A stretch of DNA of 47,975 nucleotides from Bacteriovoracaceae bacterium (GCA_023146355.1 JAGLCH010000223.1:1-47975); one strand, 5' to 3'; numbered from the stretch's first letter, positions 25,074 through 47,886 are shown. Translations and numbers: made by a program. The notes: generated by a model from the sequence alone, not told the origin.

Positions 25074-25082
25074 GGAGAAATC

Positions 25083-25940: not shown

Positions 25941-25949
25941 AGGAATTTT

Positions 25950-27203
25950 ATGATACCGCACGTTTATTCTGAAATTGGAAGGTTGAAGAAAGTCATGGTA
26001 CATGCTCCCGGTCCAGAAGTAGATATTGTTACACCTAATGGTGCTAACGATCTTCTTTTTGAAGATATTCTCTTCGGCGACCTCGCTAGAACTGAGCACG
26101 AAATTATGTGTAAGGTTTTCCATAAGTATGGAGTGGAGACATGCCACGTTTTAGATCTTTTAATTGAATCACTGGTAGCAGCACCTAAAGACGCAGTTTA
26201 TGGGCTTGTTCAAGAAATTATAAATCTTGAGGGCCTAGGAGATTCAGTACTTGATAAGCTAAAAGGCCTAACTCTTGATGAGCTAGGTCATGCATTTATT
26301 GAGGGGATTGAACACGGCCCTAAGGATATGACAGATGATAACCTCTATATCCTCGCCCCTATTCCAAACCTGATTTTTGCTCGTGATCCTGTAATTATGT
26401 GTCACGACAAAGTTCTTGCTACCTCGATGGCAGAAAAGGTTAGAACGAGAGAAGCTCGATTGATGGTATTTATATTTACGAATCATCCTGAGCTAAAAGC
26501 ACCTGAATCTATAATCGATATGAGTAAAATCGGAAAATGCGATACTGATAAGCTAACCCTTGAGGGGGGAGACTTTCTCGTTATTGATGAAAAGACTATC
26601 GCTATCGGGTGTTCACTCAGAACAACGATTGATTCTATTAAGCTAATTGGAACGGAACTCTCTAAGCTTGGTATTGAGAATTTAGTTGTTCCTATGCTTC
26701 CAAAACAGGTGGCATTTATTCATATGGATACAACCTTTACTCGGATCAGTGAGAATGAGTGCTTGTTCTACCCGCCAATTTACGCAAAGGATAGTCCAAC
26801 ACGCTCAGATATTCTTTACTTTGACTTAACGAAGCGGCCGCTAGTAGAGAAAAAGTACGATTATATCATCGATTGTTTCTCCGATATTGGGATTGAAATG
26901 AATCCTATATATTGTGGTGGTAAGGAAAGTCTTATCGACCAGCAACGTGAGCAGTGGACACAAGGATCAAACTCAGTGTGTATTGCTCCTGGTATCATCC
27001 TAACTTACTCTCGTAATGTGAAGACTATCGAAGAGTTGGCAAAGGCCGGATATATGTGTGTGTCCGCAGAAGAGGTGATTAAGCCACACTTTAATGCTGA
27101 TTTAAATCGTAAAACCGTAATCCTTTTAAAAGGCGAAGAGCTCTGTAGAGCGAGAGGGGGACCTCGCTGCCTTACACACCCACTATTTAGAGAGAAGCTC
27201 TAA
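25950..27203 (+). CDS. arcA: Arginine deiminase
   Basis: 417 aa of the guanidino-group-modifying fold. Motifs LIFARDP, LEGGDFLVI, FIHMDT and the C-terminal catalytic Cys context GGPRCLTHPL. Confidence 0.8.
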   Translation: MIPHVYSEIGRLKKVMVHAPGPEVDIVTPNGANDLLFEDILFGDLARTEHEIMCKVFHKYGVETCHVLDLLIESLVAAPKDAVYGLVQEIINLEGLGDSVLDKLKGLTLDELGHAFIEGIEHGPKDMTDDNLYILAPIPNLIFARDPVIMCHDKVLATSMAEKVRTREARLMVFIFTNHPELKAPESIIDMSKIGKCDTDKLTLEGGDFLVIDEKTIAIGCSLRTTIDSIKLIGTELSKLGIENLVVPMLPKQVAFIHMDTTFTRISENECLFYPPIYAKDSPTRSDILYFDLTKRPLVEKKYDYIIDCFSDIGIEMNPIYCGGKESLIDQQREQWTQGSNSVCIAPGIILTYSRNVKTIEELAKAGYMCVSAEEVIKPHFNADLNRKTVILLKGEELCRARGGPRCLTHPLFREKL

Positions 27204-31262: not shown

Positions 31263-32585
31263 ATGGCACTAGATAAAAATGATAAAAAACATCAGCCTAT
31301 TTTGGAATATTTTCAAGGGAAAAAGGCATTAGTTGTTCACCCTTCTAGTTCGATTCGAATGACTATTCGAAAGGTTTTGACTGGAATTGGTATTAGTAAT
31401 AACGATATCACTCAAACAGATTCTCTTAAGGAAGCGACTAAAATAGTAGTGGATGAAAGGCCGAATTTTGTCTTTAGCTTTATGAACTCGGAGGATGAGA
31501 GCTGTCTAGAACTTTCTGAGTTATCGGCAAAGTCTTGTCCAAACCGCCTTCGTGGAGGTTTTTTTCTCCTCACCTCAGAGAACTCTAGTTCAATTTCGAG
31601 CTTAATGTACGACTATGAAATTGATGCAATTATTACGCAGCCTTATACCAATAAATCACTTGAAAGTGCGATTCTCAATTCTATTGAGCCTAAAGTAAAA
31701 CCCACTCCTGCATTTACAATTCTTTGTAATGGTAAAGAGCAACTTTTTCTAAACGATGAAGATAAGGCGTATGATATTTTTACCGAGGCCACAATGATTG
31801 GTAAGGGAGTTGCAACAGCATTTTATTATTTGGCGAGAATTGAGTCTCTAAGAAATAACGCAGATGATGCTATTAGTTTTATCGCAGATGGCCTAAAAGA
31901 TAATCCGAAGAACTACTACTGCTTGTCTTTTGGAACAACTCTTCTTTTTGATCAGAAAAGATATGTTGAGGCGTATGACTATGCTCAAAAGCTTCTAGAG
32001 AATTACCCTCTATCTCCCATGCGAATACCTGAACTTATTAGGCTTTCTATTGCGACTCAAAATTTTGAGGACATTGTTGGATTTGGCGAACTCTTTAAGG
32101 AGCTTGAAAACCTTGGTGGAACAGTTAAGCGCTACATTTCTGCAGGCCTTGCAACTTGTGGACGTTATTTGGTAAAAAAAGATGACTTCGAATCTGCATC
32201 CCCAATCTTAAAAGAAGCACTTTCTTATTCTAACGGGAAAGTCATGATTTTAGAGAATATTGTATGGAGTTATTGCCTTGCAGGAGAACTTCTTCAAGGG
32301 AGAGCTGTTTATCAAAAAATGTGCGAAGTATTTAAGATTGATGAGAATAGAATGAAGGAATATGATTTACGCATGGTGAATGAGTTCTCAAATGATATTA
32401 CTGAAACGATTCTGTTAGGTGCCAAGATTATTGGAGAGGGCGTTTCTTCTTTTTCAGTTTTTAAGCTGGTTCTGAATTCGATGATTGGGCTTGATCGAAA
32501 GGAAGAGCTTAGAGAGGATATCATTCATACTGCAATCAAGAAATTTCCTGAGAGTAAGGATGAATTTCTAAAGTATCTAAATTAA
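31263..32585 (+). CDS. Pseudo-receiver domain plus TPR-like helical repeat protein
   Basis: Receiver-like fold (KKALVVHPSSSIR...PNFVFSFMN...FFLLTSE...ITQPY) with the acidic pocket, acceptor Asp and conserved Lys all substituted. The C-terminal ~290 aa are helical-repeat. ATG 31263 is preferred over the listed TTG 31248, which overlaps the upstream gene. Confidence 0.6.
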   Translation: MALDKNDKKHQPILEYFQGKKALVVHPSSSIRMTIRKVLTGIGISNNDITQTDSLKEATKIVVDERPNFVFSFMNSEDESCLELSELSAKSCPNRLRGGFFLLTSENSSSISSLMYDYEIDAIITQPYTNKSLESAILNSIEPKVKPTPAFTILCNGKEQLFLNDEDKAYDIFTEATMIGKGVATAFYYLARIESLRNNADDAISFIADGLKDNPKNYYCLSFGTTLLFDQKRYVEAYDYAQKLLENYPLSPMRIPELIRLSIATQNFEDIVGFGELFKELENLGGTVKRYISAGLATCGRYLVKKDDFESASPILKEALSYSNGKVMILENIVWSYCLAGELLQGRAVYQKMCEVFKIDENRMKEYDLRMVNEFSNDITETILLGAKIIGEGVSSFSVFKLVLNSMIGLDRKEELREDIIHTAIKKFPESKDEFLKYLN

Positions 32586-32587
32586 TA

Positions 32588-32612
32588 AAAAAGGCCCTAG
32601 GGCCTTTTTTTA
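32588..32612. terminator. Bidirectional terminator between convergent genes
   Basis: AAAAAA-GGCCC-TA-GGGCC-TTTTTTT palindromic hairpin flanked by A- and T-runs. It lies between the + gene end (32585) and the kce end (32610). Confidence 0.6.
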
Positions 32613-33428
32613 TAATCCTAAAATTTCTCTTGTCTCTGCGGGGGTTGCTACTGGTCGATCCATCTCAAGTGCTATCCTTGCAACTCGCGCTACAAACTCT
32701 GCATTAGATTTGGCATGAACACCTTTAGTGAAATACATATTGTCTTCAAGGCCAACACGCACATGACCACCCATAGCTATGGCGTGGGCCGTAAGTGGAA
32801 GTTGAAAACGTCCAACCCCAGCGACACACCATGTTTGTCCTTCAGGTAGCATATTAACGAGCATATTGAGGTTATGAATAGTTCCACTCATTCCACCTGG
32901 AACTCCGAGTACAAAGTCAATATGGTGTTTTGCTGGAATCCATCCCTTCTTTACATATTTTGGAACTGCTTCCATCATACCGTAATCGAAGATCTCAAGC
33001 TCAGGCATTACGCCATACTTAACTTCATCTGCTGCTATTGTTTTGATAATGTGTTCTGTATTTTCAAAAATTTCTGGTCCAAAATTTAGGGTGCCCATCG
33101 AAAGAGTTGCCATCTCAGGTCTAAGTGTCAGTGGTTCACATCTTAGTTTGAGAGGAGTTCCTGCAGCACCACCTGTAGTGTACTGGATAATTACATCCTT
33201 ATTTCTTTCTCTGATCTTTTCTGTTACTTCTTTGAATGTTGCTACATCTTGAGTTGGGTTACCATCAATATCTCTAACGTGAAGATGGATGATACTGGCC
33301 CCAGCGGCCGCAGCATCTGCTGCAGCGTCTGCGAGAGCATCAGTGGTCTCCGGGAAGTATGGATAGATCTCTTTATTTACTTCAGCACCAATAACAGCGC
33401 ATGTAATGATTAGTGGTTTACCTGCCAT
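32610..33428 (-). CDS. kce: 3-keto-5-aminohexanoate cleavage enzyme (BKACE family)
   Basis: 272 aa. LIITCAVIGAE N-terminus and IIHLHVRD, a TIM-barrel BKACE signature. Located in the lysine-fermentation cluster. Confidence 0.85.
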   Translation of the reverse strand: MAGKPLIITCAVIGAEVNKEIYPYFPETTDALADAAADAAAAGASIIHLHVRDIDGNPTQDVATFKEVTEKIRERNKDVIIQYTTGGAAGTPLKLRCEPLTLRPEMATLSMGTLNFGPEIFENTEHIIKTIAADEVKYGVMPELEIFDYGMMEAVPKYVKKGWIPAKHHIDFVLGVPGGMSGTIHNLNMLVNMLPEGQTWCVAGVGRFQLPLTAHAIAMGGHVRVGLEDNMYFTKGVHAKSNAEFVARVARIALEMDRPVATPAETREILGL

Positions 33429-33437
33429 GATAATCTC

Positions 33438-34679
33438 CTAAATCTTTGCACATTCAATGAGTGACTCTTCAATTGCCTTTACTACATAATCCATATCTTT
33501 ATATGTATGTGTTGCAGCGATATAGCCGTGATGGAAAGGTTGAAGGAATACTTTCTTTCTAATTAGCTCAGTATAAAAAGCAGGACGTCTCTTTTTATAT
33601 TTTTTATCAGCATCTTTGTTGAAGGTGATAAATGGCATCCATGGACAACCTGACAGAGTTACACTTACTGGTGAGTTTGCAATCACAGGTTGTAACTTTT
33701 CTTCTAGATAGTTTCCTAGCTTCTTGATTGTTCCTAGGATGTCATCTCTTTCCATAATCTCAATGGTCTTAAGAGCAGCAGTCTGTTCGAGACTGTTTGG
33801 AAAGAATGTAGAGCTTAGGAAGACTTCGTTGGCGATAACATTCATTATTTTACGTTGGCCCACGACTGCACCAATTGGATAACCATTTGCCATCGCTTTG
33901 CCGAATACAGATAGGTGAGGAGTTACGCCAAATTCTGCTTGGGCACCACCCATATTTACGCGAAATCCTGAACGTATCTCATCAAAAATGAGAACAATAC
34001 CGTGCTTCTCAGCAAGTTCTTTACAGCCCTCAAGAAATCCCGGTTTTGGCATTTCAACTTCGAATCCAAGAGGGTGACCAATTGGAGTTACAATAATTGC
34101 AGCAGTATCTGTACCGTGCTCTTGAATTAGCTTTTCAAGGCTTGCAAGATCATTGTAATGAAACTCATGAACATCTTCATAAGTTTTCGGAAGAACTCCT
34201 CCCTTTACTTCAACGCACCAGTCATGCCACCCATGGTAACCACAGCGAAAGACTTTTGATCTTTTAGTATATCCGCGAGCAATTCTAATCGCAGTTGTTG
34301 TTGCATCAGAACCAGTTTTTACAAATACTGACTGTTCACAACTTGGGATGATCTCACGTAGTTTTGCTGCGAGTTTATTTTGAACTTGTTGGGTAAGGCT
34401 CATGCAGAAGCCTTTATTTTGCATCTGGTCGATAACTGCATTGTCGATCTCTTCAACACGGTGACCAATAATGATTGGTCCATATGAGCAGAGCATGTCA
34501 ATATACTCGTTACCATCTACATCTTTAACTCGTCCGTCTTTAGCCGATTCTAGGAAAATAGGATATTCGCCGGCAACAAAGTTATATGGACGACGGATAC
34601 CTAGGATTGCTCCAGGGATCAGATCAAGTGCTTCTTCGTATAGCTCATTTGATTTATCTAGTGTTAGTTTTTCAGTCAT
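33438..34679 (-). CDS. Class-III (GSA-aminomutase-like) PLP aminotransferase; probable 3-aminobutyryl-CoA aminotransferase (Kat-type)
   Basis: DVDGNEYIDMLCSYGPIIIGH, FDEIRSGFR and PLP-Lys context SVFGKAMANGYPIG. ATG 34679 follows AAGGGAG and sits 1 nt after the kamE stop. The function is assigned from operon position and was not tested. Confidence 0.55.
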   Translation of the reverse strand: MTEKLTLDKSNELYEEALDLIPGAILGIRRPYNFVAGEYPIFLESAKDGRVKDVDGNEYIDMLCSYGPIIIGHRVEEIDNAVIDQMQNKGFCMSLTQQVQNKLAAKLREIIPSCEQSVFVKTGSDATTTAIRIARGYTKRSKVFRCGYHGWHDWCVEVKGGVLPKTYEDVHEFHYNDLASLEKLIQEHGTDTAAIIVTPIGHPLGFEVEMPKPGFLEGCKELAEKHGIVLIFDEIRSGFRVNMGGAQAEFGVTPHLSVFGKAMANGYPIGAVVGQRKIMNVIANEVFLSSTFFPNSLEQTAALKTIEIMERDDILGTIKKLGNYLEEKLQPVIANSPVSVTLSGCPWMPFITFNKDADKKYKKRRPAFYTELIRKKVFLQPFHHGYIAATHTYKDMDYVVKAIEESLIECAKI

Positions 34680-34680
34680 C

Positions 34681-35424
34681 TTATGCTCCCTTCTTATCAA
34701 TTAGTTTCATTACAATAAATGTTGCAACATCAGTTGGCACTGATCCAGGCCCAAAGCCGGCATCAAATCCAAGTTCAATTGCAAGGTCATTTGTTACTCG
34801 GGGTCCACCTGCCACAAGTACAAAGCGGTCTCTAACTCCCTCTGCTTCACAGAGCTCAATAAACTCAGTGAAATTTCTTATATGGGCATCTTTTTGAGTA
34901 ACTGTTTGAGATACTAGAATTGCTTCAGCATTTGTTTCCAGGGCCTTCTTGAGGAGCTCTTCACATGGAACCTGTGCTCCCATATTAAATGCTTCCATCT
35001 CAGGGTATCTTTCTAGGCCATAGTTTCCACTATATCCCTTCATATTCATGATCGCATCAATACCAACAGTGTGGGCATCAGAGCCAATTGAGGCACCAAC
35101 TACAGGAACCTTTCTATTTAGCTCCTCTTTGATTTTTTTGTTGATCTGGTAGTAATCCCAGTTCTCAGTCTTAACTTCTGTTGCAACAATTGTTGAGTAG
35201 TCTAGTGTTGGCCTTGCCTTTCCATAAACGACAAAATAAGTGAAGCCCTTACCAATTGTCTCTGAAAAAGAAATTTGTGGCTCATCAATATTTAGCAGTC
35301 TTGCATATTCTTCTGCCGCTTTTTTTGCCTTTGCTCCATCGTCGATTGGAAGAGTAAAGGATAGTTGGATGATGCCATCGTTAAGGGTGTCTCCATATGG
35401 TTTAATGATTTCTTGATTACTCAT
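34681..35424 (-). CDS. kamE: Lysine 5,6-aminomutase beta subunit (B12- and PLP-binding)
   Basis: DxHxxG cobalamin motif (GSDAHTVGIDAIMNMKGY) and a Rossmann-like B12 domain with VLVAGGPRV. The start ATGAGTAA overlaps the kamD stop. Confidence 0.85.
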   Translation of the reverse strand: MSNQEIIKPYGDTLNDGIIQLSFTLPIDDGAKAKKAAEEYARLLNIDEPQISFSETIGKGFTYFVVYGKARPTLDYSTIVATEVKTENWDYYQINKKIKEELNRKVPVVGASIGSDAHTVGIDAIMNMKGYSGNYGLERYPEMEAFNMGAQVPCEELLKKALETNAEAILVSQTVTQKDAHIRNFTEFIELCEAEGVRDRFVLVAGGPRVTNDLAIELGFDAGFGPGSVPTDVATFIVMKLIDKKGA

Positions 35425-36979
35425 TGATAACCCCCTCTTTCTCAATTTGGCTCATAATTGGGTTAGTGTAGTCTGCTGATTTTATAAATACACCTTCAAG
35501 GCCTTTTCCCCCGTCCATTGCACGCTTTATATCTGCAAAGTGACCTTTGCCTATTGCTTGCATAAATCCCTCATCTTCAAGTTGAGTTAGAAAGCTTTCA
35601 ACTTCATCAAGAACGTGTTGTGCACGTTTTTGTATCAGGCCATCCTTTTTAAATTCAATTTCACTTCCAAGGTCTTTCGCTACGTTAAAAATATAATTGA
35701 TATTTTTAAGTGCTTTAGCACGGTCTTGCATCAGTGGTGTATGGATGGCCTCTGTGAGTATGCCGGCAAGGTGAATCCCTTGGTCAGTGGTGACGGAGGC
35801 AATATTAAACATCGTATCCATTACATGAGAATAGAATATATCAGTGCTTTTATATTTTGTTGGAGGCATGTATTTCAGTGGAGCATTAGGGAATAACTCA
35901 CGTGCTAGTTGCGCGTGGGCCAGTTCTAACAGAAATGCGTTTTCAACTTCAGGATTAATCTCAAAAGCATGACCTAGTCCTAGAAGATCATCGGTGAGGA
36001 GTGCTCTTTTTCCAATTGCTTCATTAATCAATTGTGACGCTGTTACAGTGTAGGCATTGTCAATTGCATCAGATGTCGTGAGGTAGTTGTCTTCACCCGT
36101 ATTGATTACAATCTTAGCTCTTGAGCACAGTAGGCGAGAAAAGTACTGGTCAATAAAAGTTCTCTGAATATTAATGTCACGGAAAAGGATGCCATACATT
36201 GAGTCATTGAGAAGCATATCAAGATCTTCAATCGCAGCACAGGCCGCAATCTCTGCCATGCATAGCCCGGATGAGTAATTTACAAGGCGAACATAGCGTC
36301 CTTCTTTTTTCATTTCATCATCAAGTGCTTCACGCATAATTTTAAAGTTTTCTTGTGAAGCATAGGTACCGCCAAATCCCTCGGTAGTGGCACCATAAGG
36401 TACATAATCTAAGAGAGACTGCGCGGTAGAACGAATAACTGCAATAATGTCAGCACCAGAATTAACTGCTGCCCGTGCCTGGGTTCTATCTTCATAGATA
36501 TTTCCGGTGGCAACAATAAGGTATTTCCAGGGGGTGGGTGGAAGAGGACAGCTTGCCTGCTTCTCTGCTTTTCTAAAGCGTGTTCTATCTAAAATACCAA
36601 CTGCTGAATCTGATAATTCTTTTTCTTTTTTATCTATTTCGCTTTTAGAAAATTCTGTGATGTTCCCAAAATCGATTTCACCACTAGCGATAAGGTCTGC
36701 TGTGGTTTTAGCATCGCGACCAGACTTTAGTACTGCTGCTGCAAAGTGCCTTGAAGATCCTGTCGCCAGCTTGCCTTTCTCTTTTAATATTTCAATCAGC
36801 GCATTGGGGAGTGGGATACCTTCATCAGTGATTCCATCAACTCCGTAAAGTCTAAGTATTGTTCTTTCAACAGAAACGGAGGATCTACTTTTTACAAAGT
36901 CCTCAACTTGAGCAGCAATATTATCAGCGAGTGTTTTTACTCTCTGAACCTGCTCGGGACGAAGGCCAATTTGTGCCAT
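35417..36979 (-). CDS. kamD: Lysine 5,6-aminomutase alpha subunit
   Basis: 520-aa TIM-barrel subunit. Size, partnership with kamE, and conserved stretches (VERTILRLYGVDG, YASQENFKIMREAL, NTGEDNYLTT) fit KamD. Confidence 0.85.
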   Translation of the reverse strand: MAQIGLRPEQVQRVKTLADNIAAQVEDFVKSRSSVSVERTILRLYGVDGITDEGIPLPNALIEILKEKGKLATGSSRHFAAAVLKSGRDAKTTADLIASGEIDFGNITEFSKSEIDKKEKELSDSAVGILDRTRFRKAEKQASCPLPPTPWKYLIVATGNIYEDRTQARAAVNSGADIIAVIRSTAQSLLDYVPYGATTEGFGGTYASQENFKIMREALDDEMKKEGRYVRLVNYSSGLCMAEIAACAAIEDLDMLLNDSMYGILFRDINIQRTFIDQYFSRLLCSRAKIVINTGEDNYLTTSDAIDNAYTVTASQLINEAIGKRALLTDDLLGLGHAFEINPEVENAFLLELAHAQLARELFPNAPLKYMPPTKYKSTDIFYSHVMDTMFNIASVTTDQGIHLAGILTEAIHTPLMQDRAKALKNINYIFNVAKDLGSEIEFKKDGLIQKRAQHVLDEVESFLTQLEDEGFMQAIGKGHFADIKRAMDGGKGLEGVFIKSADYTNPIMSQIEKEGVINE

Positions 36980-37221
36980 TATCAGCTCCTTTTATAACGT
37001 TAGGGTTTGGGTTGTTTGGGTATAGTTTAAGTACCTAAATTATCAAATTCTAGAGCATTTTAAAAGAGTTCAGCACACAATTGTTAATTGTAATGAAAAA
37101 ACTACCATTATAAGAAGTTTTATTCTTACAATGGCCAGCTCTATGGTTGACTTTGCGCATCATGTTATGTAGTTTTCACAAACGAAACTTAGCTAAGCAA
37201 ACCATCATAGGGGGATATATT

Positions 37222-37548
37222 ATGTTTAAGAAGGTATTATTGCTTTCTTTGGCCTGTATTTTACTTACAGGTTGTAAGAAGAAGAGTTCAGTTCCTTACT
37301 TTTCAAAATTAAAAAGTGGGAAAATTATCAGTAAGTTTATTCCAGCACGTTTATTTGCAAAGGAAACATCTAGAGTTATTAATACTCTAAGTGCTTCAAC
37401 ATTAGAAACAATCTCAAAACAAAAAACTAAGAGTGATTGGAATCTGTCAGGTGTTGATCTTGGCCTATCACTTAGTAGTACTGTAGGTGTAGGTCCTGTT
37501 TCTGTTGGCACCAATCCTGTTTTTATACTTTATTTTAGAAAGAAGTAG
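37222..37548 (+). CDS. Lipoprotein carrying one copy of the W...SxSG...aromatic-basic module
   Basis: The in-frame ATG 37222 follows GGGGGA. It has a canonical lipobox (LLTGC) and a C-terminal module DWNLSGVDLGLSLSSTVGVGPVSVGTNPVFILYFRKK. Confidence 0.6.
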   Translation: MFKKVLLLSLACILLTGCKKKSSVPYFSKLKSGKIISKFIPARLFAKETSRVINTLSASTLETISKQKTKSDWNLSGVDLGLSLSSTVGVGPVSVGTNPVFILYFRKK

Positions 37549-37556
37549 GAGAAATC

Positions 37557-38807
37557 ATGAAATTTATTTTTATTGCTTTAATAGTGTTGTCTAGTGCAAC
37601 TTTTGCTTCAACAGACTTTACAGGCCAGCTTCCGAGTAGTTGGGTTCAGTTGCCTGAGGATGGTGGAGTTCAATCTGGTAGTATAATGAAGGGCGGACAG
37701 TCTCTCGGTGCTGCTGCGGAGGCCGTTGATACAATCTTTTCCTCTAATCATGACGTTTTGAAAAAGGTTAAAACAGTTGAGAAGAATGGCTGGAGTCTTA
37801 CTGGCTTCCAGACAGGCCTTTATATCTCTGAGTCTGGACTTGTTGGTCTTGCAACTATGAAGGGTGTTCAGGGGATTCGACTTCATTGGAAAAGATATGA
37901 CGTTCCTGAGGTAAAAGAGACTGTCAGTAATAATACTATTCCTTTAACCTCAAAAATGACTTCAAATGAGATCCTTGCAGAAATTGGGCCGGCAATTCAA
38001 ATTGCTCTCAAATCAAAAAAAATCAAAGTTAAGGATGAGCGTCTTGTTCGAGCGGGCATAACAAATGCAGCAAGCAAATACCAAAAAATGATTCAAGGTA
38101 TAGAGTCTGCTCCTACTTCACAGTGGTTTGTTAATAAGCTTAGATTTGACATATCAATCTCAGCATCAGGGGTTGTTGTTCCTGGAGCCTCTGCTGGCGC
38201 TGCGATGAGGTTTCGCTTTGAATGGAGCCGTAAAGAAAGTGATCTAGTTAGGACTAGGATTAATTATAAAACTCCTACGTCAAAATTTGTTGCAGCAATG
38301 CTTGAGGATGTTGAGTTCTTCGAATTGCACTCGAAGGGGAATCCGAAGTTTAAGCTAACTAGCTTCTTAACTGGAATTAGCCTGACTGCTTCAGGAAATA
38401 TCGCCCTAGTTAAATCAAAAGTTGGAGTCGCTGGATATATTTATTTTGCTCGCAGGAAGGCACGTGTAGCAAGTGTCCCCGCAAAAAGTACAAAGTATTC
38501 ATACTCTTTACTGGCCAAATCTACTCCTCAACTTGAGTCATATGCAAATAGAAGTAATATTGAATTTGCAAAGAACTCAAATGGCACAACACTGTTCCAT
38601 TTGGACCGGGATAACTTTAGACGAGGACTTCTTAAAGCTGGGGAAATTTCACGCTTCTTTGTTGATAGGGCAGAGAGATCTCAGGGAAAGGTTTGGGGAA
38701 TTAATATAGTTGAAAATCAATTCAACCTATCTGTTTCTGGAACTGTTGGCGTTGCTGGTATTTCAGGTAGCTCAGTGTTTAGTATGTTGTATAAGAGAGT
38801 GGAATAG
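37557..38807 (+). CDS. Secreted 416-aa protein made of four copies of the same module
   Basis: AGGAG RBS and signal peptide MKFIFIALIVLSSATFAS. The four modules end in HWKRY, EWSRK, YFARRK and LYKRVE. Confidence 0.65.
   Translation: MKFIFIALIVLSSATFASTDFTGQLPSSWVQLPEDGGVQSGSIMKGGQSLGAAAEAVDTIFSSNHDVLKKVKTVEKNGWSLTGFQTGLYISESGLVGLATMKGVQGIRLHWKRYDVPEVKETVSNNTIPLTSKMTSNEILAEIGPAIQIALKSKKIKVKDERLVRAGITNAASKYQKMIQGIESAPTSQWFVNKLRFDISISASGVVVPGASAGAAMRFRFEWSRKESDLVRTRINYKTPTSKFVAAMLEDVEFFELHSKGNPKFKLTSFLTGISLTASGNIALVKSKVGVAGYIYFARRKARVASVPAKSTKYSYSLLAKSTPQLESYANRSNIEFAKNSNGTTLFHLDRDNFRRGLLKAGEISRFFVDRAERSQGKVWGINIVENQFNLSVSGTVGVAGISGSSVFSMLYKRVE
37791..38804 (+). repeat. Four protein-level repeats of a ~37-aa module within the 416-aa ORF
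   Basis: Modules lie at nt 37791-37898, 38124-38234, 38349-38459 and 38694-38804. Each is preceded by a helical linker. Shared pattern: W/F-x-hydrophobic ... h-S-h-S/T-x-S-G-x-V/I ... G ... h-x-h-x-aromatic-x-K/R-K/R. The similarity is at the amino-acid level only, not the DNA level. Confidence 0.6.
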
Positions 38808-38815
38808 GGGTAAGT

Positions 38816-39145
38816 ATGAAAAATATATTTGTAATTTGTTTGACGATGATGTTGTTTTCAAGTGCTTTTGCGACCACGCCAAGCTTGTATAAAAGTAAAT
38901 ACTCAAAGTATACTTTTGGGGTTTCTGAGAAAATATCGAAAATGATTCATGAAGAATTAAGCTCCGTAGACGCTATCCTTCAGGATGTTGACGCAATGGT
39001 GGGGCTGGATTCTGATGCTGGCCATACTCCATGGGCATTCTCGAGATTTCGTTATAGAGTAGGTGCTTTTTTTACTATGAAGATACCTCGTATTGCATCA
39101 TTTAAAATTCAATCTCATCTAGAGTTTTATTTTACTAAAAAATAA
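38816..39145 (+). CDS. Small secreted protein with one divergent copy of the module
   Basis: Signal peptide MKNIFVICLTMMLFSSAFA and C-terminal TPWAFSRFRYRVGAFFTMKIPRIASFKIQSHLEFYFTKK. The Trp is at residue 73, the same position as in the 37222 lipoprotein precursor. Confidence 0.55.
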   Translation: MKNIFVICLTMMLFSSAFATTPSLYKSKYSKYTFGVSEKISKMIHEELSSVDAILQDVDAMVGLDSDAGHTPWAFSRFRYRVGAFFTMKIPRIASFKIQSHLEFYFTKK

Positions 39146-39186
39146 AAGTATTTAACTATTTTATTAAATACTTTTTAAGAGTTTAT

Positions 39187-39220
39187 ATGCCTCCGGTACT
39201 TAATCGGAGGCATTTTAATT
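39187..39220 (+). terminator. Rho-independent terminator closing the three-gene cassette
   Basis: ATGCCTCCG-(9 nt)-CGGAGGCAT perfect 9-bp stem followed by TTTTAATTTT. Confidence 0.75.
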
Positions 39221-39292
39221 TTCTGCAGAGGAGAAGTGTTTTAACGTGGTTTTCTAATTCATGTTATATTCTTTTTTGATATCAAATAGGAA

Positions 39293-39658
39293 ATGGGCGC
39301 AATGACAAATTTTTTGATCTATATAAAAAGTGAATTGGCTTACTTAGCTCTACTCTTTATTTTTTTTGTTTTGCCACTAGGCCTTTTTTTTCAATTTTCA
39401 AGTTACCCATTACCAAAAATTCAGTATGTCGTTCTTGGGGTATTACTTCTCTCGCAATATTTCTTTTACAGTGAAAAGGCCTATCGTCGACGAACTGAAT
39501 GTAAGGCATCCCTCCAATTAAGGAAGGAGATGGGTAAAATGCCATCAATTAAAATAACTAACGCACGTGTTAATCTTCTTATTGTTTGTAGGGGCGTAAG
39601 CATCTGTACTGCCGCTTTATCTGTCCTGACTCTCATGGTTATTTATCGACAGTTTTGA
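39293..39658 (+). CDS. Hypothetical small membrane protein
   Basis: Three hydrophobic segments, no homology recognised, weak start context (ATG 39293 or 39302). It could be spurious. Confidence 0.3.
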   Translation: MGAMTNFLIYIKSELAYLALLFIFFVLPLGLFFQFSSYPLPKIQYVVLGVLLLSQYFFYSEKAYRRRTECKASLQLRKEMGKMPSIKITNARVNLLIVCRGVSICTAALSVLTLMVIYRQF

Positions 39659-39680
39659 CTGGTAAAGGCGTGAGGGATTT

Positions 39681-41258
39681 TTAGTGTAGCTTTTTCTTGA
39701 TCTCTCTTTTGAACTCTTCTGAAAGGGGGAAGTGCATTGCAATTTTAAGGGGTGTCTTCCCATTTAGAATTGTATGCTCTAGGTTATTCTCGGTAATCTT
39801 TAATACCTCAAATGGCATTCTTCCAATAAGATCCTTAACGGTCAGCTCTCGATCAATCTCTCGATCAAACTCTAAATCTTTCATTTTGTAGAGTGATATC
39901 TCTTTGTTTTGAAGGATACTAGGGTAGTGAGTGGATGCTAAAAATACTAAATCTTTTTGTCCCATAATTTTCAGAGTAATGTCGCACAAAGTGGCACCAC
40001 TTTCTGGACTAGTTGATTGAAACAACTCATCAGAAAAGATGTAACTACTATCTTCAAAATCTTGAGAGTAAAACTCCAGCTCCTGACCAAAACTTGAAAT
40101 ATTTTGGTCAAGTGAGCCTGAACTTTTGAGTAGAATGTTGATTGTTGTGGGGTATTTTAGCTTTATGCTCTTTGCAGGAATAGGTAGGCCAAACCTAACA
40201 CATTGTAGAATGAAATAAAGTGTTTTTAGAATCGTTGTTTTACCTGACATATTTGAGCCATAAATAATATTGGCGCCACTATCTAATAAAATGTTTAGGG
40301 GGATATATTTATCTTTTCTATTTTCCTTAAGTATGGGAAGAATTCCGTCTTTGAGTTCAATTTCAGTTGTTTGGGTAAATACAGGAAGACAGAGTTTATT
40401 ATCTAGTGCTGTTAGGCAAATGGTATATTTTAAAAGGCGGTCCTTCCTTGCATGATAGATGCGAAGAAACACTTCGGTATATGCTGAGATCTCATAATTG
40501 ATTTCCCTCAGTTTTACATCGATTGTCTGCTTAAACAGAGTCGTGAGTTCTTCTCTCTTCTTTTCAATTTCTTGAAGAACTGGAGTCAATTTATAATCAA
40601 TAGTATAGTGCGTACCCTCTTTGGTTACTTTTAGTTCACTTGATTTAGATGCCTTTTTTACCACATCTGTTTCAGATTCAAATGACTTGGGGTAGGGGTA
40701 AATCATTCGATGATTTATTTCCTTACTAACCTTCTTTTCATAATCTTTTAGCACATGGTTAAATGTATCATCGACAGTATGGATTTCCTCTCTTAAGGAT
40801 TTTTCTACAGGACTTAGCTTTAAAGAAGTGGCCTCACCATCAGCATATTTTTCTAGGATACCAAGAAGAAGATCTATGGTACCCGTATTTGAAAGAAGAG
40901 GGTGGTGTTTTCCTTCACGCGCAATGAGGTCTCGCTCGACCTTTAAGAACTGGTAAAGTTGGTGAAGATGAAACTGCTCAAGTTCTTTCTTTTGTAGAAA
41001 GGGGATTAGGGAGTCTAGTTGAGGAAGCAGGCGTCCTCTACTGATTAGTTGGTCAATCGAAATTTCTCCAGCATCATGAAGATCTAGTAACTCCCCGAGT
41101 TTCTTGAAGTGCGCCACGCCCTGCTCTTTACTCAGAGGCACTAGGATTGTATGAGGAATTAGTGGTATATCTCGATTAAAGGTTTCCAGGTAATTCTTTA
41201 TACCAAGCTCTACGTGGAGCTCACTTTTAATGCTGTCTTGTACTAACTCTAACCGCAT
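39681..41258 (-). CDS. MutS-domain-V-only ABC-type ATPase with a helical N-terminal region (no mismatch-binding or clamp domains recognisable)
   Basis: Walker A GSNMSGKTT (nt 40236-40259), Walker B/D-loop-like IFSDELFQSTSPESG and LASTHY (MutS FATHY). The start overlaps the upstream P-loop gene by 32 nt. Confidence 0.75.
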   Translation of the reverse strand: MRLELVQDSIKSELHVELGIKNYLETFNRDIPLIPHTILVPLSKEQGVAHFKKLGELLDLHDAGEISIDQLISRGRLLPQLDSLIPFLQKKELEQFHLHQLYQFLKVERDLIAREGKHHPLLSNTGTIDLLLGILEKYADGEATSLKLSPVEKSLREEIHTVDDTFNHVLKDYEKKVSKEINHRMIYPYPKSFESETDVVKKASKSSELKVTKEGTHYTIDYKLTPVLQEIEKKREELTTLFKQTIDVKLREINYEISAYTEVFLRIYHARKDRLLKYTICLTALDNKLCLPVFTQTTEIELKDGILPILKENRKDKYIPLNILLDSGANIIYGSNMSGKTTILKTLYFILQCVRFGLPIPAKSIKLKYPTTINILLKSSGSLDQNISSFGQELEFYSQDFEDSSYIFSDELFQSTSPESGATLCDITLKIMGQKDLVFLASTHYPSILQNKEISLYKMKDLEFDREIDRELTVKDLIGRMPFEVLKITENNLEHTILNGKTPLKIAMHFPLSEEFKREIKKKLH

Positions 41259-42216
41259 GAAAGTCCTCTTTGAAGATATTTGTTACTGGAACAGTACCAG
41301 GGTCTAAATCAAACTCACTATCTTCTTCTTTGATAAATATATGCTCAACTATCACCGGATGGAATAGAGCTAGAAGTGGATTAAAGATCCTCTTATTAAC
41401 CGACTGCTTAAGTGTAATGTTGTGGTACAAGGTAAAATTATCAAGCACAACTGTTAGCTTTTTGTATGGTGCGAGAAAACTATATAAAGATTTGGTTAAT
41501 GCTCCTGCTAGATAAAGTATACACTCTTTATCCAGCATCTCTTCTAGTTGTGATTTGAGTTCATTATCCATGAAGGGAATCATTGTACTCTTATATTGGA
41601 GCGTGTTATTCGGACCAAGAAGGATTGATTTTACTGATTCTGTTTTGTGCTCTGAAATTGCGCTATGCCGTTTAGGGTCGCACGTGGGAAACTTCAGGGG
41701 TTCGAGTAGGTCTTCTGCTTTTTGTCGCTGCTCTTTTCTGCTCGAAATAAGAAGTGAAAAGTAGAATGCGTCAGATACTTCCGGAGATGCCACAAACTGA
41801 CGGTCAATAGATCCATCTATCATCAAAGTTAGATCATTGAAGCTCTCACTAATTGTTTTTTTTATTTTTTGAATCTCATGCTTCTCATTTGGGCCCTCCA
41901 GAATAATCTTAAAAGGAGTAATGGTCCTGCCCATAACAAATTGCTTTTTATAGGTAGGAGGAGAAAAGACTTTTATGGTTTCGTATTTTCCATTGTGATC
42001 AGTGAGATGAGTACCTGCTGTAATAAAATAGCTATCGGTAATTGTTGTGATTATAGGTTTACTATGGCCCTCGTAGTTATCGAGTTTTTCCCCATTTAGT
42101 CCAATGGAGGTAATACAGATTGGGGAAGCTTCCCGACTTAACTTGTCATAAACAAAGTTGAAGCTAGTAGTCTTCCCCGCATTTTTATCAGATCCGATAA
42201 ACGAGATTGTGTACAT
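41227..42216 (-). CDS. P-loop NTPase of unknown function
   Basis: N-terminal Walker A IGSDKNAGKTT (nt 42166-42195) and a possible Walker B LTLMIDGS. The ATG lies 2 nt after the kdd stop. Confidence 0.6.
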   Translation of the reverse strand: MYTISFIGSDKNAGKTTSFNFVYDKLSREASPICITSIGLNGEKLDNYEGHSKPIITTITDSYFITAGTHLTDHNGKYETIKVFSPPTYKKQFVMGRTITPFKIILEGPNEKHEIQKIKKTISESFNDLTLMIDGSIDRQFVASPEVSDAFYFSLLISSRKEQRQKAEDLLEPLKFPTCDPKRHSAISEHKTESVKSILLGPNNTLQYKSTMIPFMDNELKSQLEEMLDKECILYLAGALTKSLYSFLAPYKKLTVVLDNFTLYHNITLKQSVNKRIFNPLLALFHPVIVEHIFIKEEDSEFDLDPGTVPVTNIFKEDFHAVRVSTRQH

Positions 42217-42218
42217 CT

Positions 42219-43256
42219 TTAGCAGTACACGCGCTCGAAAAGTTCTCTTAGTTTCTTATGTTCTCTGATTACCTTTAAAGAGATCTCATCGTTGTTTGGA
42301 GCATAACCATTACCAACAATTAAAAGAGCATCAGAGCCAATTCCCTCTGCCCCAAGTGCGGCCTTTGAGAAGCTTGTTGCCATCGAGAAGAGGTAAACTG
42401 TTCCATCAACTTTCGCTGCCATGATTGAAGACATTTCAATATTGTCCACAGATGCAACGTTGATTACGAGGTCGGCCATCTCACCATTTGTAAGGTCAGA
42501 TATTGATCTTTGTACTGCAAGAGGGTCAGTCGCATCGACATCGAGAATATGGTCACAGCACTCGAGTTCTTTAAGTCTCGCTTGTCCACCTTTACCAGGT
42601 TCAATTGCAATCAGTTTTCCTGTGTTTCCAAGAATCTCTCTTGCAACAACAGAGCAAAGTGATCCTGACTTTCCACCTGCCCCAATAATCACTACAGTTT
42701 GTCCAGGTTTAACAAGCTTATAGGCCTGAGCTGGAGCTCCCGCGACGTCAAGTACAGCAAGAGCTAGAATCTGGTCCATATCTGTTGGGATCTTAGCAAC
42801 TGGTCCCGATGGGAAAAATATTGCGTGGCCCTTAATTTTTACTTGGTCACGCTCAGGGAAAATTTCAATAATTTCATCAATGTGAAGTGGTGTTAGTGAA
42901 AGAGAAACAAGCGATGCCATCTTGTCACCAACAGTGAAGCCATTTTTATTAGGGTATTCTGGGCCGATCTCTTTAACTGTTCCAAGAAGCATCCCTCCTG
43001 AACCCGTTACAGGATTTTGCTGCTTTCCACGCTCGGCAACAATTCCACAAATCATCTCACCGACTTTCTTAAGGTCGCCGCCACAGGCCTCTTTCATTTG
43101 AGTGAAAGATGCAGAGTCGATATTGAGTGTATCAACTTCAACGAGTAGCTCATTTGAGCGGATGGGTAGGGTATTATCAATTTTTTGGGCATTTTGTGGA
43201 AGCGCATTCGCTGGCTCGATGACGCGATGTGTTCCATACTGGCAGATGTGAGTCAT
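42219..43256 (-). CDS. kdd: L-erythro-3,5-diaminohexanoate dehydrogenase
   Basis: 345 aa. N-terminal YGTHRVIEP...LPQ and the LNIDSASFTQ segment match my recollection of Kdd. Rossmann motif VVIIGAGGKSG. Confidence 0.8.
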   Translation of the reverse strand: MTHICQYGTHRVIEPANALPQNAQKIDNTLPIRSNELLVEVDTLNIDSASFTQMKEACGGDLKKVGEMICGIVAERGKQQNPVTGSGGMLLGTVKEIGPEYPNKNGFTVGDKMASLVSLSLTPLHIDEIIEIFPERDQVKIKGHAIFFPSGPVAKIPTDMDQILALAVLDVAGAPAQAYKLVKPGQTVVIIGAGGKSGSLCSVVAREILGNTGKLIAIEPGKGGQARLKELECCDHILDVDATDPLAVQRSISDLTNGEMADLVINVASVDNIEMSSIMAAKVDGTVYLFSMATSFSKAALGAEGIGSDALLIVGNGYAPNNDEISLKVIREHKKLRELFERVYC

Positions 43257-43426
43257 TAGTGCTCCTTAAATAGGGTGTTAATCTTCTTCAAAAGTACCAA
43301 ATTTCTTTCAAAGGTTCCACCCTTGCACTGTTTTATTTATCACAACAATTGTCACTCTCTTTTGGTGGTTTGGCCTCCCCATTTGGTATATGATGTGTTT
43401 GATACTTAAATTTGATAGGGGACTTC

Positions 43427-46372
43427 ATGGAAGTAAGTAACTACAGTTGTTATCACGATTTGATGCCTAATAGAGTCAAAAATATTCTTGTTGTTTCAAG
43501 CCCGTATGATGCTTTTATTATGGAGCAGGATGGTGGACTTCTAGAACATGTTTTCATGCAGGTGCGGGGAATTAGTTTAGTCGAACCACCACGATTTACA
43601 GTTGTTTCTTCTGGAGATGAGGCATTTGAAATACTTGGATTAAAGAAGTTTGATCTCGTTCTCTCCATGCCCCGTTACCTAGATAAAGAAAAAACGATTA
43701 TTTTTGCAAAGGCCATCAAAGAAATTCAGCTTGTTCCGGTTGTTTTGATGGTTCGAAGTGCCAAAGAGCTTAGTCACAAAGTTAAAAACTATCCTAAAGA
43801 TATCATTGATAATGTTTTTATGTGGTCAGGTAATCGAAGTGTACTTTGGTCTGTTCTTAAGTGGTGTGAAGACCGAATGAACGCTGAGCATGATACCCAG
43901 TTGGCAGATGTTAGAACAATCATCGTTATTGAGGACTCACCTTACTATTACTCATCATTGCTACCCATGCTTTATCGCTCAATTGTAAAGCAAACTCAAG
44001 CAGTAATGGACGATACTTTAAGTGATGAGCACCGCTTAGTTAAGCTTCGAGCGCGCACAAAGATTCTATTGGCGACAGATTATGAAGAGGCCGAAGTCCT
44101 ATATAAAAAATTTCGTCCCTATCTTTTGGGGATTGTCTCCGATACTCGCTTTCCTAGAGCAGGGGAAGTTGATGCTGAGGCCGGAATAAAATTTTTAAAA
44201 ATGGTTAAGAAAGATATGCCTGAACTTCCATTACTTCTCACAAGTACTGAGGGAATTAATAGAGAAAAGGCAAAAGAGATCCCTGCAAGGTTTCAGGATA
44301 AAAACTCTGCCCACCTTCACAAAGAGCTACGCAAGTTTCTTGTTAGTAATATGGGGTTTGGAGACTTTATATTCAGACTTCCATCTGGGGAAGAGGTGGT
44401 CCGTGCATCAAATTTTAAGGCGATGGAAAAAGCACTAAAGCATGTTCCAAAAGAGTGTCTTCTTTATCATAGTATGCAAAACCACTTTTCCAACTGGTTT
44501 TTTGCAAGGGCCGAAGTAGAGCTAGCATCATACTTTAGAGCAATGAATCCTCACGAATTTGATTCGCCAGAAGAGATCAGGAAGTGTTTGGTTCAAGCAT
44601 TGCGCGACCATAGAAAGCAGAGACAACGTGGTATTATCGCTGAATTTAATTCTGGAGAATTTGATTTTGATTCAGTCTTTTCCAAAATGGGAGAGGGCTC
44701 TCTGGGAGGCAAGGCCCGTGGTCTTGCCTTTATGTCTCGCTATCTGAATGAAAATATTCATCGTTTCGATGAGTATCAGAATGTAAGTGTTTCCCTTCCG
44801 AAAACTGTTGTCATTGGAGCGGAATATTTTGACGAGTATGTTGAGGAAAATGATCTCTATGATTTATCGGAGCATGCATTCACAAATAAAGAAATAGCAC
44901 TAAAATTCTCTAAAGGGAGATTGCCAGAGACACTGGCAGCAGACCTTCGTGAGTTACTTGAAGTTGCAGACTATCCACTCGCTGTACGATCTTCTTCTCT
45001 TTTGGAAGATAGTCAGGAACAGCCATTTGCTGGGCTCTACGCAACCTATATGCTTCCCAATAATGATCAAGATTTTGATGAGCGCTTCTTTCAATTGGCA
45101 CATGCTGTAAAGATGGTTTACGCATCGACCTACTTTGAAGCACCAAAGGCGTTTTCTCGCACAACAAAACATCGCACAGAAGAAGAAAAAATGGCGGTTG
45201 TTATTCAGCAGGTTGTTGGGGATGTGTATGGGGAATATTTTTATCCACTTTTATCGGGGACGGCACAATCACATAACTTCTATCCTTTAAATTTTATGAA
45301 AGCAGAAGAGGGGGTCACCCAGATTTCCATGGGGCTCGGTAAAATCGTAGTTGAGGGTGGACAGACTATTCGATTCTCTCCAAAGTTTCCTAAAAAAATC
45401 GTACAGTTTTCTTCTGCCATAGACACAGTTCAAAGTTCTCAGAAGCAATTCTACTGTCTCCGTATGACTGGTGGAACATCTACGGGCGCATGGGTCGACG
45501 AAGATGTTACTCTTATTAAACGTGATGTTTCTGATGCTAAGAATGAAACACCATTTTATCTCATCGCAAGTACTTACGAGGCCAATAACGCCCGTGTGCG
45601 TGATTCATTTGATGGTAAAGGTATACCCATTTTAACCTTTGCTAGTATCTTAAAATATGGAGAGTTTCCCTTGGCCCAGGTTATTGAAACTATGCTTGAT
45701 ATTGGTAAGCGTGGTTTTGGTTGTGATATTGAAATTGAGTTTGCAGTTAACCTCAATCAGAACTACTTGGAAAGTGGCGGAAAGAAATGGGAGTTTGTGC
45801 TTCTCCAAGCAAGACCAATGATTACAGCAGATGATGGGCTCGATGTTAGCATTAGTAATAATGAAATTGAAAAATCTATGTGTTACTCCACCAACGCTCT
45901 TGGCCGCGGTGTGAGTAAAGATATCACTGATATAATCTATCTCGACCCCGAGCACTTTAACTCTATTAATTCGATGAATATCATCCCTGAGATTTCCAAG
46001 CTAAATGCGGAGCTTGAAAAAGAAGATCGAAAGTATCTTCTAGTTGGGCCTGGACGTTGGGGATCTTCTGATCACTGTTTAGGTGTTTCAGTGCAGTGGA
46101 ATGATATCTCAAGTGTTGGTGGGATCATTGAAGCTGCGACCAGCGATTTTAGACCCGACCCCTCGCAAGGGACACACTTTTTCCAAAATATCACATCATT
46201 GGGGATTGCTTATTTTACTGTCCATAATCGAGAAGATCAGCTGGACTGGGATTGGTTTAAAAATTGCGATGATGAGGCCGATTTTAAATTTATCAAGCAT
46301 ATTCGGCTAGAGAAACCCATAACTATTAAAGTCGATGGGAAGAAAAATGCAGGTGTTGTGATTATAAATTAG
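43427..46372 (+). CDS. Pseudo-REC + REC + PPDK_N (PEP/pyruvate-binding ATP-grasp)-like protein
   Basis: First receiver-like domain has FDLVLSMPRY (no acceptor Asp). Second has VIEDS...LLGIVSDTRFP...LLLTST (acceptor Asp present). The C-terminal ~560 aa contain GSLGGKARGLAFM and VRSSSLLEDS, as in the nucleotide-binding domain of PEP synthase / PPDK, but no GGxTSH swivel histidine is seen. ATG 43427 follows AGGGGA. Confidence 0.7.
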   Translation: MEVSNYSCYHDLMPNRVKNILVVSSPYDAFIMEQDGGLLEHVFMQVRGISLVEPPRFTVVSSGDEAFEILGLKKFDLVLSMPRYLDKEKTIIFAKAIKEIQLVPVVLMVRSAKELSHKVKNYPKDIIDNVFMWSGNRSVLWSVLKWCEDRMNAEHDTQLADVRTIIVIEDSPYYYSSLLPMLYRSIVKQTQAVMDDTLSDEHRLVKLRARTKILLATDYEEAEVLYKKFRPYLLGIVSDTRFPRAGEVDAEAGIKFLKMVKKDMPELPLLLTSTEGINREKAKEIPARFQDKNSAHLHKELRKFLVSNMGFGDFIFRLPSGEEVVRASNFKAMEKALKHVPKECLLYHSMQNHFSNWFFARAEVELASYFRAMNPHEFDSPEEIRKCLVQALRDHRKQRQRGIIAEFNSGEFDFDSVFSKMGEGSLGGKARGLAFMSRYLNENIHRFDEYQNVSVSLPKTVVIGAEYFDEYVEENDLYDLSEHAFTNKEIALKFSKGRLPETLAADLRELLEVADYPLAVRSSSLLEDSQEQPFAGLYATYMLPNNDQDFDERFFQLAHAVKMVYASTYFEAPKAFSRTTKHRTEEEKMAVVIQQVVGDVYGEYFYPLLSGTAQSHNFYPLNFMKAEEGVTQISMGLGKIVVEGGQTIRFSPKFPKKIVQFSSAIDTVQSSQKQFYCLRMTGGTSTGAWVDEDVTLIKRDVSDAKNETPFYLIASTYEANNARVRDSFDGKGIPILTFASILKYGEFPLAQVIETMLDIGKRGFGCDIEIEFAVNLNQNYLESGGKKWEFVLLQARPMITADDGLDVSISNNEIEKSMCYSTNALGRGVSKDITDIIYLDPEHFNSINSMNIIPEISKLNAELEKEDRKYLLVGPGRWGSSDHCLGVSVQWNDISSVGGIIEAATSDFRPDPSQGTHFFQNITSLGIAYFTVHNREDQLDWDWFKNCDDEADFKFIKHIRLEKPITIKVDGKKNAGVVIIN

Positions 46373-46518: not shown

Positions 46519-47886
<1,368 letters not shown>

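Follow-up and report, generated by a model that had tools for sequence, protein, structure and literature searches.

We analysed a lysine-fermentation gene cluster on a 47,975-nucleotide (nt) stretch of DNA from a Bacteriovoracaceae bacterium (GCA_023146355.1, JAGLCH010000223.1:1-47975; the whole stretch is called the window below). Two of its genes, kamB and kamC, encode a P-loop nucleoside triphosphatase (NTPase) and an ATPase related to MutS, a pair that may well serve the B12-dependent lysine 5,6-aminomutase KamDE as an ATP-driven reactivase. On the minus strand the cluster reads kdd-kamB-kamC-[2.7-kb insertion]-kamD-kamE-aminotransferase-kce (Table 1). The stop codon of kdd and the ATG of kamB are 2 nt apart and the reading frames of kamB and kamC share 32 nt, so that kdd, kamB and kamC form a tightly packed unit. 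An AGAGGA Shine-Dalgarno sequence lies 5 nt ahead of the kamC ATG (41258), the initiating methionine of KamC (M1) is invariant in the alignment of its homologues, and kamB and kamC are translationally coupled. A sequence-only reading of the region had proposed the pair as a candidate aminomutase reactivase rather than a DNA repair system, and the motifs it quoted are all in place. The open reading frame (ORF) of 525 amino acids carries GSNMSGKTT at residue 334, SDELFQSTS at 409 and STHY at 442, the ORF of 329 amino acids has the Walker A motif GSDKNAGKTT at residue 8, and the overlap of the two is real. The same reading placed the pair between kdd and kamDE, which holds for the gene order and fails for adjacency, as four plus-strand ORFs (37147-39658) part kamC from kamD.

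The only NCBIfam match of the 329-residue protein is NF052386, "lysine 5,6-aminomutase reactivase subunit KamB" (E 9.3e-38, 130 bits), which spans residues 4-262 and leaves the final ~65 residues unaligned. The best match of the 525-residue protein is NF052383, "lysine 5,6-aminomutase reactivase ATPase KamC" (E 5.5e-37, 127.7 bits), in which residues 153-521 align with positions 147-505 of the 508-position model; KamC of the closest relative, a Bacteriovoracaceae metagenome-assembled genome (MAG) chromosome (locus L001), scores 145.8 bits against the same model. Together with the synteny described below, these best matches support the proposal of a reactivase over DNA repair. They also correct its implied novelty: it took the gene for the activity not to be established, and both models already carry reactivase names.

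The relation to the named families was traced through a Christensenellales locus (L058) with the order kdd-kamA-339 amino acids-588 amino acids-kamD-kamE, whose two proteins exceed the model cut-offs (KamB 380 against 210 bits, KamC 531 against 300 bits). Hidden Markov models (HMMs) built from the window's clade in turn detect Clostridial KamB and KamC at E values of 1e-18 to 1e-34. The window pair is therefore a divergent subfamily of the KamB and KamC families, and its members are positional orthologues of the proteins that NCBI names "lysine 5,6-aminomutase reactivase". In both groups there are two genes in the same order, usually overlapping, between kdd/kamA and kamD-kamE, and the proteins have equal lengths, share the conserved P-loop and MutS-type ATPase motifs and find each other by HMM. 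The window pair differs from Clostridial KamB and KamC in sequence, at 22-29% identity, and forms a separate subfamily in Bdellovibrionota, Desulfobacterota, SAR324 and Cloacimonadota that has its own clamp-tip motif, MIYPYPKE. A KamB profile HMM search, with matches at E ≤ 1e-10 clustered at 50% identity, returned 954 clusters, 81 of them in the window's subfamily (E ≤ 1e-30). All of these relatives are of ~300-380 amino acids with no added domains, and those with names come from Bacteriovoracaceae, Bdellovibrionales, Desulfobacterales, SAR324, Oligoflexia and Cloacimonadota. Members of the subfamily fall below the NCBI cut-offs and are deposited as "hypothetical protein" or "MutS-related protein", so the models could be widened; the GenBank names of the canonical proteins are likewise "MutS-related protein" and "hypothetical protein". 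The jump in gene names from kamA to kamD/kamE suggests that the names kamB and kamC date from the first sequencing of the C. sticklandii locus.

KamB has no match in Pfam. Residues kept in at least 90% of 105 family members are G8, K11, N12, G14, K15 and T16, then S37, G39, G42, E43 and D46, then G108 and P109, and finally D134, G135 and R139. The family motifs are thus an invariant extended P-loop, GxxKNxGKT, followed by SxGxxGE, GP and DGxxxR, and the window protein has them all. An AlphaFold2 model (predicted local distance difference test score, pLDDT, 87.5) gave no match at E ≤ 0.001 in a fold search of the PDB, and the best hit of a KamB profile against PDB sequences had an E value of 1.2; the model resembles P-loop proteins of the MinD/ParA/FlhG/HypB/MobB type weakly. 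Two specific identities for KamB were tried and rejected. Against a CobA/BtuR-type adenosyltransferase, hhalign with E. coli BtuR gave a probability of 0.3 over 26 columns, and there was no Pfam match to any adenosyltransferase family. Against a MobB-like protein, hhalign with E. coli MobB gave a probability of 6, limited to 21 P-loop columns, Foldseek gave template modelling (TM) scores of 0.20/0.35-0.37, and the Pfam MobB model touched canonical KamB only (E 0.01).

In KamC, Pfam recognizes MutS_V alone (residues 331-453). Across 81 family members conservation lies almost exclusively in the ATPase motifs, and the residues kept in at least 90% of them (G334, N336, M337, G339 and K340; S388, F390 and E393; D410 and E411; H444) are all present in the window protein, where the second group falls within SSFGQELEF at residue 388. 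From this conservation KamC is predicted to be a hydrolysing, probably dimeric MutS-type ATPase. A profile built from 20 KamC homologues aligns positions 93-448 to residues 79-439 of Thermotoga maritima MutS2 (E 1.9e-20). In the AlphaFold model (mean pLDDT 89.6), long helices at residues 150-181 and 226-258 flank a small beta element (191-222), and Foldseek alignments of the model to structures of MutS2 and MutS exceed 500 columns (E ~1e-19, TM 0.6-0.67; T. maritima MutS2, 9kce, TMq 0.62 and TMt 0.66). The profile match and the structural alignment indicate that the lever/clamp is retained. As modelled, KamC is thus MutS2-like over its whole length, with core/lever, clamp, ATPase and C-terminal helical tail, which contradicts the earlier description of an ATPase core alone behind an unrelated helical N-terminus and without a clamp.

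The earlier reading was right that the mismatch-binding and connector domains are missing: there is no match to PF01624 (domain I) or PF05188 (domain II). MutS2 proteins (TIGR01069; structures 9kce, 7qv3 and 8qpp) likewise lack domains I and II, have core/lever, clamp and ABC ATPase, and share with KamC the motifs GxNMxGKT, S-x-F-x-x-E, DE and TH(Y), with TM scores of 0.62-0.67. Unlike MutS2, KamC has neither a KOW nor an Smr nuclease domain (no PF01713 match; the chain stops at residue 525), and its gene context is metabolic and not linked to DNA or ribosomes. The clamp segment is about neutral in charge (family median -1), and MIYPYPKE at its tip is conserved in the window's subfamily and not across the wider KamC family. 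MutS1 mismatch-repair models (TIGR01070 and NF003810) align only from about position 545 on, at 35-40 bits against cut-offs of 480-642, and were rejected, as was a defence-system ATPase, for which PADLOC matches had the length of the Walker A motif only and at most 24 bits.

Gene neighbourhoods were surveyed in two sets, one anchored on KamB (57 species-representative genome loci, with denominators of 42 and 45 for the loci that have enough flank) and one on KamD (80 metagenome loci, of which the 61 with at least 3 kb upstream were counted). In the first set kdd lies upstream of kamB, on the same strand and within 7 kb, in 42/42 loci; kamC adjoins kamB in 39 of 45 by tblastn, or 40 with L057, where it was detected by HMM; and kamD follows kamB within 6 kb in 40 of 45. 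The order kdd-(kamA)-kamB-kamC-kamD-kamE is found in Bdellovibrionota, Desulfobacterota, SAR324, Cloacimonadota and Clostridia, and the overlap of the kamB and kamC frames recurs in most loci. The linkage to aminomutase genes expected in the sequence-only reading was borne out, KamB homologues being found only in lysine-fermentation clusters. Around the five KamB loci without a nearby kamD there was no other B12 enzyme, oraSE included, and the downstream genes were unrelated (AAA, Tad, HD, patatin and trypsin/TPR). The next most distant relative (E 1e-12) again sits in a kdd-kamA-kamB-kamC-kamD-kamE cluster.

Seen from KamD, kamB is nearby upstream in 45 of the 61 loci and kamC in 33. The three genes kamB-kamC-kamD are contiguous in 25 loci, kamB-kamC lies 0.7-6.6 kb upstream of kamD in six, KamC and KamD share a single reading frame in one, kamB stands directly ahead of kamD without kamC in 12, distant kamB only or distant kamC only is found in one locus each, and 15 lack both genes within 10 kb. 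Of these 15, many are otherwise complete kdd-kamA-kamD-kamE-kce clusters (e.g. L060, L066, L072, L081, L114, L116, L118). Clusters with kamB only occur among the genomes of the window's own subfamily (L009, L030, L038, L042) and among the metagenomes (L064, L071, L078, L083, L086, L088, L092, L098, L101, L106, L122, L123), and since they arise in several independent KamB lineages, KamC appears to be dispensable in cis. The pair is specific to lysine-fermentation clusters and not universal there, and KamB is its more constant member. The single-frame case (L128, 7917-10940) is an ORF of 1008 amino acids with KamC (8-465) and KamD (488-1000) in frame, either a natural fusion or an assembly error. 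A partial protein 70% identical to it (P0184) has KamC and KamD Pfam domains joined by a frameshift-like linker, and the protein database held no full-length KamC-KamD fusion.

Lysine 5,6-aminomutase is inactivated by its own turnover, and its value as a biocatalyst is limited accordingly; an E2 helper of the enzyme was described in the 1970s. The native enzyme consists of the KamDE core (E1) and this auxiliary, ATP-dependent E2 of ~80 kDa, and recombinant KamDE is active and undergoes suicide inactivation (PMC3958899; PMC9081730). MutS-like proteins in operons of adenosylcobalamin (AdoCbl)-dependent enzymes have been revealed by bioinformatics, and ATP-dependent metalloprotein complex assembly was proposed for them (Krishnan et al. 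2020, via PMC9164220). The legend to Figure 2 of PMC3149608 defines the labels "HP" (hypothetical protein) and "mutS" for genes drawn in the lysine-fermentation clusters of Fusobacterium nucleatum, of a Bacteroidetes contig and of Cloacimonas, and gives them no function. These labels bear out the MutS ORF and hypothetical ORF that the sequence-only reading had placed in clusters of the Fusobacterium type. We found no assignment of E2 to specific genes in the accessible literature. The reactivase idea is not new, being present in curated NCBI models and in the published bioinformatic proposal. What is added here is modest, namely a divergent subfamily missed by current models, the whole-length MutS2-like architecture predicted for KamC, a quantified co-occurrence that includes frequent clusters without kamC or without both genes, and a lineage-specific insertion that breaks up the cluster here.

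We regard it as rather likely that KamB and KamC are an E2-type accessory of KamDE, a chaperone that would spend ATP on opening the cobalamin domain, allowing AdoCbl to replace the damaged cofactor. We infer that the two proteins would form a complex, the historical ATP-dependent E2, with suicide-inactivated KamDE as its substrate. By ATP binding and hydrolysis the complex would open the B12-binding domain of KamE, damaged cobalamin would leave and intact adenosylcobalamin would rebind. The MutS-like lever/clamp dimer of KamC may hold protein in place of DNA. KamC would then be the motor, and KamB, the more constant of the two, the NTPase that faces the client or cofactor. The E2 "activating/sulfhydryl protein" of Clostridium sticklandii is, like KamBC, an ATP-dependent auxiliary of lysine 5,6-aminomutase, and among the conserved genes of the lysine cluster only kamB and kamC encode ATPases without an explained role.

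Several observations weigh against this assignment. Both window proteins miss the equivalog cut-offs of their models, 210 bits for NF052386 and 300 bits for NF052383. KamB and KamC add up to 98 kDa per heterodimer against ~80 kDa for E2, and neither family has a conserved cysteine, yet E2 was called a sulfhydryl protein. With 15 of 61 kamDE loci lacking both genes within 10 kb and 12 lacking kamC, the pair is no strict requirement in cis, KamC least of all. Where clusters are split (the window, L040 and L048), kamBC remains with kdd and not with kamDE. No experiment or assay on KamB or KamC activity was found in the accessible literature, and "reactivase" is therefore to be read as a putative name.

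Other roles for the pair were weighed against the same evidence. KamBC could deliver the cofactor or assemble the holoenzyme, loading or gating AdoCbl into new apo-KamDE with no part in repair. By analogy this would resemble the service of the MeaB/MMAA G-protein and adenosyltransferase to methylmalonyl-CoA mutase, and it might include the "AdoCbl synthetase" activity of E2. The weak fold neighbours of KamB are of SIMIBI type (MinD, ParA, HypB, MobB), a class that supplies many cofactor chaperones. E2 is reported to have AdoCbl synthetase activity and to move label from ATP to E1 (PMC3958899), and "metalloprotein complex assembly" is the wording of the published proposal (PMC9164220). Recombinant KamDE, however, binds AdoCbl and is active without E2 (PMC3958899), KamB has no adenosyltransferase match in Pfam and aligns neither with BtuR nor, outside the P-loop, with MobB, and we consider delivery unlikely. 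A purely regulatory role, in which KamBC would sense ATP and activate KamDE allosterically without cofactor exchange, draws on the ATP-dependent activation seen in native preparations that contain E2 and missing in recombinant KamDE (PMC3958899; PMC9081730). We give it little credence: the Walker B glutamate, signature serine and switch histidine of KamC are all conserved, which points to cycles of hydrolysis and not mere binding, and OraS alone is reported to restore ATP regulation to KamDE (PMC3958899), so that such regulation does not need KamBC.

That KamBC serves KamA, the radical-SAM lysine 2,3-aminomutase, in iron-sulfur (Fe-S) or S-adenosylmethionine (SAM)-related maintenance, or that it serves Kdd, is very improbable. 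Such a role would agree with the constant position of kdd upstream of kamB (42/42), with the retention of kamBC beside kdd in split clusters, with the place of kamA in Desulfobacterota and Clostridia, between kdd and kamB and immediately upstream of the latter, and with the existence of Fe-S cluster carriers among SIMIBI-type NTPases. But kamA is absent from the 48-kb window and from 10 of 35 well-flanked KamB loci, which disfavours KamA as client; Bdellovibrionota- and Cloacimonadota-type clusters without kamA are L001, L019, L024, L037, L040, L045 and L048-L050. Moreover, Kdd, an NAD(P)-dependent dehydrogenase, is not known to need an ATPase partner, neither KamB nor KamC has conserved cysteines to hold a cluster, and kamB abuts kamD in 12 of 61 loci. 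The whole-length likeness to MutS2, including the clamp-like element, could also mean that the 525-residue protein is nucleic-acid-directed (recombination control or ribosome rescue) and merely located in the cluster, a role that we find hardly credible. KamC lacks the domains to which MutS and MutS2 owe their nucleic-acid functions (domains I and II, Smr, KOW), which we count for a protein-directed role, and the score against TIGR01069 is 70.8 bits with a cut-off of 400. The clamp is about neutral in charge, defence-system matches are confined to the Walker A region, and synteny with lysine-fermentation genes is strict in at least five phyla and extends to the relative found at E 1e-12.

Known B12 reactivases are NTP-driven, are encoded beside a suicide-prone AdoCbl enzyme and release damaged cobalamin so that coenzyme can rebind. 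The job proposed for KamBC would be that of DdrAB/PduGH and GdrAB for diol and glycerol dehydratase, of EutA, and of MeaB/MMAA for methylmalonyl-CoA mutase. In fold they have nothing in common with KamBC: DdrA, GdrA and EutA belong to the Hsp70/ASKHA-type ATPases and MeaB to the G3E GTPases, while KamC is a MutS-type ABC ATPase and KamB a P-loop protein without a close structural relative. No sequence or structure match to the DdrA, GdrA, EutA or MeaB families was seen in the KamB and KamC searches. If KamBC is E2, a MutS-type ABC ATPase with an orphan P-loop protein would be a new architecture among the few B12 reactivases, and a MutS-family machine would be shown to act on a protein client. 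A bolder version, which we offer tentatively and with some doubt, is that KamBC represents a third, structurally unprecedented class of B12 reactivase, in which a MutS2-type clamp ATPase would act on a protein, namely KamE at its cobalamin domain, in place of nucleic acid. The fold-orphan KamB would then form the indispensable core and KamC a dispensable booster that was repeatedly lost, and the window's clade would be a distinct subfamily with MIYPYPKE at the clamp tip as its client-contact motif.

Table 1 Features of the lysine-fermentation cluster in the window, from kdd to kce (columns: feature; position; strand; evidence).
kdd, L-erythro-3,5-diaminohexanoate dehydrogenase, 345 aa	42219-43256	-	NF052381 245 bits (cut-off 200)
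kamB-like P-loop NTPase, 329 aa, 37.5 kDa	41227-42216	-	NF052386 130 bits, below cut-off 210
Shine-Dalgarno AGAGGA for kamC, within the 3' end of kamB	41264-41269	-	read from sequence
kamC-like MutS2-type ABC (ATP-binding cassette) ATPase, 525 aa, 60.6 kDa	39681-41258	-	NF052383 127.7 bits, below cut-off 300
2.7-kb block with four ORFs between kamC and kamD	37028-39709	+	comparison with L001
Four ORFs of the block	37147-37548, 37557-38807, 38816-39145, 39293-39658	+	
kamD	35417-36979	-	NF052384 757.6 bits (cut-off 600); PF09043 746.7 bits
kamE	34681-35445	-	NF052385 358 bits (cut-off 280); PF16554 and PF02310
hemL-like class-III aminotransferase, 420 aa	33438-34700	-	PF00202
kce	32610-33428	-	NF052387 371.2 bits, just under cut-off 382; PF05853 327 bits

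In the translation of kamE the DxHxxG motif is present as DAHTVG. The class-III aminotransferase keeps its position between kamE and kce in nine Bdellovibrionota-type loci (L001, L019, L024, L032, L034, L036, L037, L039, L050). Models for glutamate-1-semialdehyde aminomutase score below cut-off on it, and no NCBIfam model reaches its cut-off. The protein is probably a candidate Kat, the 3-aminobutyryl-CoA transaminase of an alternative lysine fermentation route, which is described in PMC3149608.

The block that interrupts the cluster was delimited by comparison with L001, in which the two proteins of the pair are 72% and 58% identical to those of the window. The flanks are collinear, and L001 has 430 nt where the window has 2.68 kb. 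Homologues of the four block ORFs were absent from all 57 KamB loci. None of the four matched PADLOC, and in Pfam none reached a curated cut-off; the ORF of 416 amino acids had one weak, sub-threshold Pepco match. Their N-termini resemble signal peptides, a lipobox or membrane segments. Judged by these comparisons, the block is lineage-specific and lies outside the kam system. Another interrupted cluster was seen in a Desulfobacterales MAG (L006, 4066-7008), with trypsin-like protease and TPR genes between kamB and kamC.

An Rfam search of the entire window found no B12 riboswitch and no other RNA element, and among the ORFs scanned elsewhere in the window there were no cobalamin-related genes. 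Promoter and terminator counts in 32400-43500 were not above those of shuffled sequence, and the sole noteworthy item from that scan is a terminator-like hairpin after kce (32610-32587).

Divergent from kdd, the plus strand encodes a protein of 986 amino acids with a PPDK_N (pyruvate phosphate dikinase nucleotide-binding) domain and DUF5752 (43412-46372), followed by a glutamate dehydrogenase-like gene (46528-47886); both also adjoin kdd in L001, at 89% and 91% identity. On the same strand at 24072-27203 lie probable arginine deiminase pathway genes, with ornithine carbamoyltransferase (24072-25073), an unassigned ORF of 285 amino acids and arginine deiminase (25950-27203) in that order. In the Christensenellales-type locus L058 (1-4111), microcompartment shell genes (PF00936) immediately precede the canonical lysine cluster, together with genes for an aldehyde dehydrogenase and PTAC and an RnfC-like gene.

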